A stretch of 64,000 nucleotides of DNA. Source: a virus. Lineage: Duplodnaviria > Heunggongvirae > Uroviricota > Caudoviricetes. The stretch is taken from the IMG/VR virus record IMGVR_UViG_3300045988_149737; one strand, 5' to 3'. The stretch's first letter is position 1. Each line of letters begins with the position of its first letter. Below are positions 33,703 through 36,101 of this stretch, one piece after another. The notes beneath the pieces were generated by a model. That model worked only from the letters and a program-made list of their open reading frames with translations. It was not told the DNA's origin and searched no databases. The position numbers and the translations under genes are program-made.

Positions 33703-33914
33703 TGGCATTAACACTGGCAGGTCTGGAAATCGAGAAAACAAGCGGCTACTGGCGTGCTAAGGGTTTCAAGCAGCCTGGCATTCTTGAGCGTCTGGAACGT
33801 GAAGATGGGTATATCGTCCACCAGCGGCGTGAATGGCGTATGTACGATCCAGAAACAGGAAAACTGACTACAAAAGCCGGAACACTTTGGGGTCTGTTGA
33901 AGAAAATACACTAA
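33702..33914 (+). CDS. hypothetical protein
   Basis: 70 aa; start overlaps previous stop. Confidence 0.3.
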   Translation: MALTLAGLEIEKTSGYWRAKGFKQPGILERLEREDGYIVHQRREWRMYDPETGKLTTKAGTLWGLLKKIH

Positions 33915-34395
33915 TAGCACCAACCACTGCGGTGAGTAGTCTGCTCACCGCATTCGTATCCAGCTCATTATCCACTGTAGTCAGTAACAAAACCTTCCTA
34001 CATATCTGCTAACCACTGTAGCGAGTAGACAGCCTTTCATTCGCATCAAACAACCACTATGGTGAGTATTGGAGTGAGATGTCCAGCGGGTATCCACTAT
34101 GGTGAGTAAGCCTTTGCTGTTTTCAGTGGATATCCACTCGCCACAGTGGATACGCTCAAAGATGAGGGCGACAACAACCACTATAGACAGTAAATTTTCC
34201 AAGATACCCAGTGACCACTAACCTCGCAGCCCTTGTTTCATCAGTGTTAGTGATCACTAACATTTAATTCAGTATTTGCATTCTACTGCCTACAGTGGTT
34301 ATCAACAGATAACGATACTCACTATAGTGGATAGCGAATTACAGATATAAGTAAGGCTCACTACAGTGGATAGTGAGCCTTACTACTAACTACAG
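33908..34395. repeat. iteron array A (about 11 copies, both orientations), incA-like
   Basis: Repeated AACCACTrTrGTGAGTA / CTACAGTGGATAG units around palindromic core CCACTATAGTGG; downstream of repA. Confidence 0.7.
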
Positions 34396-34403
34396 TGGTT
34401 GGG

Positions 34404-35459
34404 CTATTTGCGAGTCTTTGCCTTGCGCAACTCTTCGAGAAGCGCCAGTTCTTCTTTACTCAACATGACCATTTTGCCTTCTTTTTCGTCAGGCACAACG
34501 TCGATAATGTCATCTTGATTCTCATCTGGGAGGCTATATTCCGTCTCATCATTATCGATTTTTGTTGATATTTGTGCCTGGCGTAACTTTGGCCGCCTAT
34601 AGTGGATGACGAAGTAGACCGAGTTTCCGCGCTTAACTTCCGTGTAATCGAGATATCCTATCTCTCGCAGCTGTTCCATAGCCTTTCTTACCGTCGCATT
34701 CTGAGTAATAGTGCGACTTGTTAGATTAAGTCTGGCGCGTAAACGGGCTAGTGATATTGGTGCCGGATCAGGCGGCAAACTTTCAATAAAAGTATAAAGC
34801 GCCTGAGCGGATTCTTTTCTTGAGAGTTCGTTTATAGCCCGGAGTTGCAGAAGAACCTTTTTGTCGAACTGGTAGAGTTCGAAAATCTTGGGATCTGCTT
34901 TCAGTTCGACCGTATCGTGCTTGACACTATATTTTGCCGTTTGCACAAGATGCGTTACGTAAAACTCATCAGAGCCTTTGCTACGGAACGAGATGGTATT
35001 TGTGGCAATACGGCTTAGCGAACTGTCCAGGCGTTTGCGTAACTTCGCTGATGACCTGGCGGTCGGAATGCCACACAGCCTTACAAACTCAACGAACGGC
35101 AACGTGACAGTATCGCCAACGACCTTGTGTTTGGCAAACGCGTGGATTATTCCCACCCACGTTTTAAAGTCGTTATCCATATCAAGCCGAAGGCCAGAGA
35201 TCCTTATGTCTTCGTACCCTTCGGCTTTTGCCAGAGACAGCTGTTTGAGTTCAGCAGAGGCATCCATAGAGACCATTTGCCCCTTTCTTCCTCTGGATGT
35301 CGATTTCAGCGTCGGAACGAAGAGGCCCAGACGCATCAAAGCAACAGGCTGAACAGTGTTATTAGTGTTAGGAACCAACATAACAACTTCGCCTGTCTTT
35401 TTATCTGTTTCTGAAAATGCTTCAACGATCGCTATGTTTTTATTGCCGTTTTCGCTCAT
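34404..35459 (-). CDS. repA: RepA-like plasmid replication initiator (P1 RepA family)
   Basis: Blocks [68 protein letters not shown] resemble P1 RepA as recalled; flanked by iterons. Confidence 0.65.
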
Positions 35460-35494
35460 TCCAAATGTCTCTTGTTATTCGACGGCTTTGGTGG

Positions 35495-35635
35495 CCTTTG
35501 CTGATTACAGTGGATAGTAGCACTCATCACAGCGGTTATCCTACCGTCTATAGTGGTTTTTCTCCTCTCTATAGTGGTTGCTTTGCTCCCTATAGTGGAT
35601 TATTCGCTCTCTATAGTGGATATCGATCATGTCTG
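35495..35635. repeat. iteron array B (about 6 direct copies, 22-bp period)
   Basis: CTATAGTGGwT units at about 35504, 35529, 35548, 35570, 35592, 35614. Confidence 0.7.
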
Positions 35636-35639
35636 AAGG

Positions 35640-35890
35640 CAGATGGCACAACGGTTTGAGGTGGGCGGGGATCTTATTGGGTCTTTATGGGTCTCTTTGG
35701 TTCTCTTTGTGATCTGAATTACTGGATCGGGCCTGTGGATAAAAATCAGAGGATTTCAAGAACAGGTAACTCTACTCTTCTGTGGATATTTAAGGACATA
35801 AGAATCATGACTAAGAGTAGAGTTTAAAATATATCTATGTATATCAGTATGTTAATGAAGAATTAAGTCATTAAGTTATCCATAAAAGAC
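35640..35890. promoter_or_regulatory. AT-rich origin segment with DnaA-box matches
   Basis: TGTGGATAA at 35734-35742 (reverse complement TTATCCACA), TGTGGATAT 35781-35789, TTATCCATA 35876-35884; GATC sites at 35671, 35711, 35725. Confidence 0.55.
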
Positions 35891-35899
35891 AATGTGCTC

Positions 35900-36008
35900 T
35901 ACTCTCTACAGTGGATATATACAGCTCTCCAGAGTGGTTGTTTTACTCTTCATAGCGGTTATTCAGCTCTCTACAGAGGTTTCTTTGCTCTCCATAGTGG
36001 ATGGCAAC
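35900..36008. repeat. iteron array C (about 5 direct copies, 22-bp period)
   Basis: CTACAGTGGATAT, CCAGAGTGGTTG, TCATAGCGGTTAT, CTACAGAGGTTTC, CCATAGTGGATGG spaced 22 bp. Confidence 0.65.
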
Positions 36009-36043
36009 ACCCTTTCAGACCAGTAACCGCAACGGCTAGAGGC

Positions 36044-36101
36044 GATCGGGGATCTCTTTGGATCTTCTATTTGATCTTACTTGGGATCTCTTATTTGGAT
36101 C
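36044..36101. promoter_or_regulatory. GATC cluster (6 sites in 58 bp)
   Basis: GATC at 36044, 36051, 36061, 36073, 36086, 36098. Confidence 0.5.

Follow-up and report, generated by a model that had tools for sequence, protein, structure and literature searches.

The DNA stretch analyzed here comprises 64,000 nucleotides of the Caudoviricetes record IMGVR_UViG_3300045988_149737 in IMG/VR and is referred to below, at its full length, as the window. Between positions 33919 and 36118, it carries a minus-strand repA gene flanked on both sides by fields of short repeats (iterons), with DnaA boxes and clustered GATC sites on the upstream side of the gene. The comparison of this locus with known systems led us to conclude, with good confidence, that it is the plasmid-maintenance replicon of an SSU5-type phage-plasmid and belongs to the P1/RepFIB family of iteron replicons. 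An earlier note on the same DNA had proposed a RepA-like initiator on the minus strand and a P1-type replicon in which repA lies between two iteron fields. The first proposal was borne out by the Rep3_N and Rep3_C matches of the 34404–35459 product, and the second by the homology of RepA, the agreement with the layout of P1, and the DNA homology of the GATC/DnaA region.

The repA gene and its iterons

The initiator gene is an open reading frame on the minus strand (34404–35459) that encodes a 351-amino-acid protein of the Rep_3 family (WH1 + WH2). The Pfam models Rep3_N (E = 1.3e-10, 42.2 bits against a cut-off of 22.4) and Rep3_C (E = 1.3e-4, 22.5 bits against a cut-off of 21.1) both matched the protein. 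It was 48.7% identical to the RepA of P1/P7 over amino acids 28–293, 60–65% identical to the RepFIB RepA of F-like plasmids, including pO157, and 76 and 70% identical to homologues from Rahnella and Pantoea plasmids, respectively. The gene is annotated as RepA in Cyrano, SSU5, pMT1, and pHCM2. Since a PDB sequence search and an NCBIfam scan gave no matches for RepA, the family assignment rests on Pfam and on the homology to the P1 and RepFIB proteins. Residues 294–351 (34404–34580) form an acidic and then helical C-terminal extension of approximately 58 amino acids, which is absent from P1 RepA. Alignment showed this extension to be common to the Rahnella and Pantoea homologues and in part to those of RepFIB and PhiR41_1; the Pfam model T4_y05I_C matched it weakly, below threshold.

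The iterons were mapped with a 22-position position weight matrix (PWM) built from 20 clear copies (consensus TCTACTCACTATAGTGGATATT; sites were accepted at a score of at least 16). The matrix recognized 24 sites with scores of 16.8–28.6, all inside 33919–36005, and the maximum elsewhere in the 64 kb was 14.0; within the window, the iterons are statistically exclusive to the replicon locus. Four of the 24 sites, scoring 16.8–22.7, were outside the training set. Twelve sites lie downstream of repA, six plus five upstream of it, and a weak one within the gene itself.

The downstream, incA-like control array (33919–34403) contains 12 iterons in mixed orientation, with PWM scores of 20–29 and an irregular spacing of 20–109 bp. 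Six are on the minus strand (starts at 33919, 33967, 34008, 34049, 34089, and 34173) and six on the plus strand (starts at 34113, 34133, 34282, 34314, 34353, and 34382). The copies nearest repA are oriented like the origin iterons and most of the far copies are inverted, the same pattern as in P1 incA. Upstream of the gene, the proximal array (35497–35624, plus strand) consists of six head-to-tail iterons starting at 35497, 35519, 35540, 35561, 35582, and 35603; their spacings are 22, 21, 21, 21, and 21 bp, and the array ends 38 bp before the repA start. The distal array (35898–36005, plus strand) has five head-to-tail iterons (starts at 35898, 35921, 35942, 35963, and 35984) spaced at 23, 21, 21, and 21 bp, mirroring the 22, 21, 21, and 21 bp of P1 incC. 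Tandem Repeats Finder also gave a period of 21 for the upstream arrays, so that the phase previously put at 22 bp had to be corrected to 21 bp. The expectation of about 11 upstream iterons in two arrays agreed with the 6 + 5 found, and the predicted downstream array was present, its number being 12 by PWM and not about 11.

The number of downstream iterons was 12 in the window, 13 in pHCM2, 14 in pMT1 and p34399, 14–15 in S56 pB, and 15 in SSU5, and the 6 + 5 upstream iterons were fixed in the same relatives. The variation in the downstream number might be related to differences in copy number. The weak site within the repA coding sequence (34589–34610, plus strand; PWM score 16.8) is found at the same position in SSU5, pMT1, pHCM2, S56 pB, and p34399; RepA may act at this site, or the site may have been preserved merely through the VIHYRR that it encodes. 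We also observed that the iteron resembles a DnaA box in its conserved 3′ half, (C)AGTGGATA(A), differing from it at one or two positions, and that one of the incA-like iterons contains, at 33968–33976, TTATCCACT, the variant present in the distal origin box as well. Cross-recognition of the iterons by DnaA is possible.

Two origin modules upstream of repA

By sequence comparison, the region upstream of repA is two tandem paralogous copies of a complete origin module, each made up of a DnaA box, GATC heptamers, a spacer, and iterons. Read in the direction of repA, the distal module has a DnaA box at 36115–36107, six GATC heptamers, a G+C-richer spacer, and five iterons, and the proximal module has a DnaA box at 35742–35734, six heptamers, a homologous spacer, and six iterons. 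The two modules can be aligned with each other at an offset of 373–381 bp. The two arrays, between which the earlier note had placed an AT-rich segment, are not the halves of one origin. A single origin interrupted by an insertion was considered and rejected as untenable, since a homologous spacer, a heptamer block, and a DnaA box accompany each of the two arrays.

The distal host-factor block (36041–36118, minus strand) contains six GATC heptamers and the DnaA box TTATCCACT at 36107–36115. Its GATC sites are at 36044, 36051, 36061, 36073, 36085, and 36098, with spacings of 7, 10, 12, 12, and 13 bp. The cluster of six GATC sites in 58 bp (36044–36101) had been described correctly, and the right end of the replicon, previously set at 36101, is at 36115. 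The next densest 58-bp stretch of the window has three GATC sites, and in 200 random 64-kb sequences with the same dinucleotide-transition frequencies the maximum was five per 58 bp, reached once. The spacer between the distal iterons and this block (36006–36040; 49% AT) is homologous to the spacer in the origins of P1, PhiR41_1, and pJN2-26 and includes the motif ...CTGG.CTGAA....

The proximal host-factor block (35665–35745, minus strand) consists of degenerate heptamer repeats and the DnaA box TTATCCACA at 35734–35742, the sole perfect DnaA box in the 64 kb. GATC is kept in three of its six heptamers (35725, 35711, and 35670); in the repA direction, the other three read GAAC, GACC, and GACC (plus-strand GTTCT, GGTCT, and GGTCT). 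In the relatives, the proximal block matched the origin-core profile with E-values of 1e-18 to 1e-19.

The inter-module spacer (35746–35897) is 70% AT, compared with 54% for the window, in agreement with the AT-rich segment reported between the arrays. Two one-mismatch DnaA boxes are located in it, at 35781–35789 (minus strand) and 35876–35884 (plus strand). Together with the perfect box, these account for the three DnaA-box matches described before, and the box at 36107–36115 is a fourth. Four boxes in 503 bp compare with approximately 0.5 expected at the window density of 1.08 per kb. An island in the spacer, AGTTATCCA at 35874–35882, was invariant in the six aligned sequences (the window, SSU5, pMT1, pHCM2, S56 pB, and p34399). 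The spacer is AT-rich in the Cyrano lineage only. It also holds a 12-bp perfect inverted repeat (35768–35779 and 35813–35824; AACTCTACTCTT and AAGAGTAGAGTT) with a 33-nt loop, and the best sigma-70-like match of the region, TTAACA-16-TATATT (35855–35828, minus strand), lies in it and is directed towards repA.

A sigma-70 consensus scan gave eight matches, compared with 4.0 ± 2.5 expected, none of which was conserved in the relatives, and it did not locate the repA promoter. The hexamer TAGGAT, which is the annotated −10 element of P1's PrepA, is conserved between proximal iterons 2 and 3. The consensus for IHF, WATCAANNNNTTR, had zero sites in the replicon region and four in the whole window, which equals the chance expectation, and an Rfam scan of 33500–36500 at E ≤ 1 matched no known RNA regulator. 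Across the window, the GC skew rose monotonically with gene orientation and showed no switch at the origin; the skew profile was therefore uninformative.

The layout of the modules was the same base-for-base in SSU5, pMT1, pHCM2, E. coli S56 plasmid B, and an E. hormaechei plasmid. Segment identities between the window and five aligned relatives (SSU5, pMT1, pHCM2, S56 pB, and p34399) were 86–90% for the proximal iterons, 85–95% for the proximal heptamer/DnaA block, 84–86% for the distal iterons, 73–77% for the distal GATC block, and 62–65% for the inter-module spacer, which was the least conserved segment. All six GATC sites of the distal block were invariant although the block as a whole was only 73–77% identical, suggesting that the GATC tetranucleotides are themselves the target of selection. 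The proximal block, unlike the distal one, appears to be maintained over its whole sequence.

To cover a wider range of relatives, we surveyed one genome per species, which gave 80 RepA loci, 78 of them assessable, and the DNA upstream of repA was searched with a host-factor-block profile. Two modules were found at 36 of the 78 loci (RepA 66–91% identical), from Kluyvera, Buttiauxella, Yersinia, Rahnella, Erwinia, Pantoea, and Cedecea. Sixteen loci (RepA 62–76%) had one module situated more than 200 bp from repA, i.e. the distal one only, and 26 (RepA 65–68%), mostly of a different Pantoea subfamily with a different iteron, had one module adjacent to the gene. The distal copies at the two-module loci had five to six GATC sites in 36/36 and a DnaA box in 34/36; the proximal copies had three to four GATC sites in 35/36 and a DnaA box in 19/36. 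Eight of the distal-only loci were scanned for iterons and two were read (e.g. L031 from Franconibacter and L054 from Pantoea): there were iterons near repA and no heptamer block. None of the surveyed loci in the RepA clade with this iteron type had retained the proximal module only. In all of the more distant relatives examined (P1, JK004, RCS47, JL22, the pO157 RepFIB, PhiR41_1, and pJN2-26), a single module abuts repA.

Proposed roles of the two modules

At the level of the family, the replicon very probably works in the way proposed for P1 and RepFIB. By homology to these systems, RepA monomers would bind the phased origin iterons, and host DnaA, positioned on the flanking box, would together with RepA open the adjacent block of GATC heptamers. 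Dam methylation, and sequestration of the hemimethylated GATC block by SeqA, would restrict re-initiation. RepA would repress repA from the iterons adjacent to the start codon of the gene, and the 12 downstream iterons would titrate RepA and handcuff the origin iterons, keeping the copy number low.

With regard to the division of labour between the modules, we lean towards the reading in which the distal module is the initiation site and the proximal one is a diverged paralogue with mainly operator and control functions. The distal copy (35898–36118), in which all six GATC sites are kept and which corresponds directly to the P1 oriR core, would be the working origin. The proximal copy (35497–35745), which has lost half of its GATC sites, would serve in autoregulation and control, possibly with a residual or alternative origin function. 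This assignment is based on the survey, since the distal copy had five to six GATC sites at every two-module locus and a DnaA box at nearly all of them and was the sole copy kept in 16 relatives.

Several observations weigh against this assignment. The proximal block is 85–95% conserved across SSU5, pMT1, pHCM2, and Enterobacter plasmids, compared with 62–65% in the neighbouring spacer, suggesting that selection maintains it and that it is more than a copy in decay, and it may still act as an origin. The perfect DnaA box is the proximal one, and the distal box has one mismatch. The consensus scan did not place the repA promoter, so that the proximal iterons are taken as an operator by analogy. 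The profile used in the survey was partly built from sequences of the same clades. Finally, the phylogeny of the modules is weak: in a neighbour-joining tree of the host-factor blocks, which span approximately 110 bp, the proximal copies grouped together with a bootstrap value of 8%, and the pairing of the two copies plasmid by plasmid received 2–10%. The most parsimonious history would be one ancient duplication, which these values leave tentative. A pairwise-identity matrix from global alignments was discarded, the baseline for shuffled sequences being 74%.

Extending the argument to the relatives, we suggest, only tentatively, that the replicon belongs to an Enterobacterales RepFIB-like clade in which a tandem P1-type origin has long been kept and the two copies have split the ancestral roles between them. 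The clade would include pMT1, pHCM2, the SSU5-type phage-plasmids, and plasmids of Rahnella, Pantoea, and Erwinia (RepA 66–91% identical). The distal copy would be the Dam/SeqA-controlled initiation site; the proximal copy would act either as a second origin insensitive to methylation or as a dedicated partner in autoregulation and handcuffing.

As the main alternative, it is conceivable, if rather doubtful, that a single RepA serves both modules as functional origins, the distal module being fully controlled by Dam and SeqA and the proximal one, with its three GATC sites, being less dependent on methylation and less sequestered. The proximal origin might then serve other conditions or add to the level of approximately five copies. 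Each module holds all the parts of a P1-type origin in the correct order, and the strongly conserved proximal host-factor block, set against its poorly conserved neighbouring spacer, bears the only perfect DnaA box of the window. Where GATC is lost, the degenerate heptamers read GACC or GAAC without a break in the repeat frame, the same pattern occurs in Rahnella, and P1 itself tolerates one GGACC heptamer. The copy number of P1 is roughly one to two. Cyrano, with a copy number of 5.5 (PMC9928086), is above that level. However, the proximal heptamer block has been wholly lost in 16 related replicons, and only 19 of the 36 proximal copies keep a DnaA box. The finding that P1 requires its GATC heptamers and their methylation for oriR function also speaks against a second origin in the proximal module.

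The reverse assignment, in which the proximal module is the real origin and the distal one an accessory element for copy control or incompatibility, or a redundant relic, is unlikely. In its favour, the origin abuts repA in every single-module relative (P1, RepFIB), the proximal array has six iterons and the perfect DnaA box, and the oriV of RK2 provides a precedent for extra iteron clusters that act in control. Nevertheless, in 36/36 of the two-module relatives it is the distal and not the proximal copy that preserves five to six GATC sites. The distal copy also has the 21-bp identity to the P1 core, and it is the copy retained where one survives away from repA.

The iterons are asymmetric and directional. 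The earlier note had described the iteron core as a perfect palindrome and suggested from this that RepA binds as a dimer. The 12-mer concerned, CCACTATAGTGG, does not occur in the 64-kb window. The central 12-mer was palindromic in 0/23 iterons and the central 10-mer in one (the copy at 34314–34335, with CACTATAGTG at 34320), and only the 6-mer CTATAG was found as a palindrome in six of the 23. In the PWM, the right half, AGTGGWT, is conserved (AGTGG at 1.2–1.6 bits), whereas the left-half positions that would complete the dyad have 0.2–0.8 bits, the lowest in the matrix. Thus, the directional character of the iterons follows from these nearly uninformative mirror positions together with the strict head-to-tail order; arrays with a 21-bp phase are what would be expected for directional, monomer-bound sites. 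Since the palindromic core is absent, the inference of dimer binding is without basis, and a palindromic core bound by RepA dimers is highly improbable; the claim appears to have arisen from merging the two orientations of an asymmetric repeat.

That the repeats are a lytic-phage origin, a packaging site, or a transcription-factor array and not a plasmid replicon is scarcely credible: the element is indeed a phage and encodes its own helicase, primase, Pol III alpha, and ligase, but the repA-iteron cassette is the only replicon of the non-phage Rahnella and Pantoea plasmids and of pMT1, and it has feature-for-feature homology to P1 oriR, incC, and incA.

The element and its relation to known replicons

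Over its full length, the 2.3-kb region was 99.9% identical to Escherichia phage Cyrano (OV696614, = pLF82), and a 99.9% match was also found with approximately 58 plasmids of E. coli, E. albertii, and Shigella. At approximately 83% DNA identity followed many plasmids of Enterobacter and Citrobacter, together with Salmonella phage SSU5, the S. Typhi plasmid pHCM2, and the Yersinia pestis plasmid pMT1; the RepA of the last three was approximately 91% identical. The 99.9% match, pMT1, pHCM2, S56 pB, and p34399 are all typed as IncFIB in PLSDB. In E. coli LF82, Cyrano resides as the plasmid prophage pLF82; it is an SSU5-like siphovirus, present at approximately 5.5 copies per cell (PMC9928086). 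The identity of the element, its repA, and the IncFIB typing are thus already in databases and plasmid-typing schemes. Since the element and repA have been deposited and the family is among the best-studied plasmid replicons, the replicon itself is already known.

According to the annotation of Cyrano, the other genes of the window include phage lysis genes and genes for a helicase, a primase, Pol III alpha, a ligase, RecA, SbcCD, and ParA, the last at 3078–3746, approximately 30 kb from repA. Beyond the downstream array lies a cra-like open reading frame of 70 amino acids on the opposite strand (33702–33914). This reading frame and, on the other flank, an ASCH-domain gene and SbcD (36203–38187) are syntenic in the phage-plasmids PhiR41_1 and pJN2-26, whose RepA is only approximately 50% identical and which have different iterons (ATGCTGTCAGCGGT) and one origin module. 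The rep cassette seems, by this comparison, to have been exchanged in place among SSU5-type elements. The RecA-like open reading frame at 28837–31176 (plus strand; 779 amino acids), annotated simply as RecA in Cyrano, has an apparent intein-like insertion just after the P-loop (GPPSAGK|CVTADT ... SHN|TFLATA).

Recognition of the replicon as such matters little, IncFIB being already listed and the element already deposited as Cyrano/pLF82. In the database records inspected (Cyrano, SSU5, and five related plasmids), repA is the only annotated feature of the replicon. The analysis adds a base-level map of the iterons, Dam sites, and DnaA boxes for the replicon of pMT1, pHCM2, and many clinical SSU5-type phage-plasmids. 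This can guide the design of curing or incompatibility cassettes: the effective part in RepFIB of F and pO157 is the downstream iterons, which alone displace the plasmid, whereas the upstream iterons fail to do so (PMC11983097). An origin present in duplicate, one copy of which is poor in Dam sites, offers a natural experiment on the separation of origin function, autoregulation, and methylation control in iteron plasmids. We found no description of a tandem origin of this kind, nor any paper on its fine structure, in the literature accessible to us; since the original pMT1 and pHCM2 papers were outside it, the duplicated origin is not claimed here as unreported.

The record of P1 shows, in order, nine incA iterons, repA, five incC iterons (spacings 22, 21, 21, and 21) containing PrepA, five Dam sites (7, 10, 11, and 23), and the DnaA-binding site. 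The order and orientation of the elements, the 21-bp iteron phase, and the mixed orientation of the downstream array are all reproduced in the present replicon. A 21-bp run of the P1 oriR core, TTGGATCTATCCAGTGGATAA, is identical at 36095–36115 of the window, and the distal DnaA box is identical to one of P1's two boxes. The consensus of the core, covering the DnaA box, heptamers, and spacer, is TTATCCAC..G...GATCC.AATAAT..AGATCC...AGATCCCCG...CTGG.CT.AA; it can be aligned across P1, JK004, RCS47, PhiR41_1, pJN2-26, pO157, Rahnella, and Pantoea, and the iterons differ between these groups.

There are also clear differences from P1. P1 has one origin module, nine control iterons, and parAB abutting incA, whereas the present replicon has two modules, 12 control iterons, and par approximately 30 kb away. 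The P1 incA iterons are arranged as 6 + 3 in opposite orientations and those of the present array as six plus and six minus. The P1 iterons, GATGTGTGCTGGAGGGAAA, are unrelated to the TACTCnCTAYAGTGGWT of this replicon, which for this reason is not of P1's incompatibility type; this and the position of par also set it apart from a P1 plasmid-maintenance region in the strict sense. Membership of the wider P1/RepFIB type is indicated by the Rep_3 initiator, at least five phased head-to-tail iterons, the mixed downstream array, and the GATC-heptamer/DnaA block. The label P1-type given earlier thus holds for the family, but the nearest characterized family is RepFIB, with 60–65% RepA identity, and the par genes are not adjacent.

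The RepFIB replicons of F, P307, and pO157 have the closest characterized initiator and follow the same plan, with an upstream origin and downstream control iterons, a DnaA box, and five GATC sites. They differ in having a single origin module beside rep and iterons of the ACAGCTTATA type. Further relatives are the large plasmids of Rahnella, Pantoea, Erwinia, Kluyvera, Buttiauxella, and Cedecea (RepA 66–91% identical), which share the iteron core AACCACTATAG and the tandem pair of origin modules with its Dam-site-poor proximal copy. The Rahnella and Pantoea records inspected were ordinary, often conjugative plasmids or megaplasmids and not phages, and in 16 lineages of these relatives the proximal heptamer block is gone. 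The replicons of pMT1, pHCM2, SSU5, and Cyrano/pLF82 are the same replicon as that of the window, with the same 6 + 5 iterons, six-GATC spacing, and DnaA-box places; the DnaA boxes of SSU5, pMT1, and pHCM2 read TTATACACA and TTATTCACA, compared with TTATCCACA and TTATCCACT in the window. With its IncFIB typing and a RepA 90.7–91.5% identical to those of the pHCM2/pMT1 type, the replicon is the IncFIB (pHCM2/pMT1) branch of the RepFIB/P1 family.

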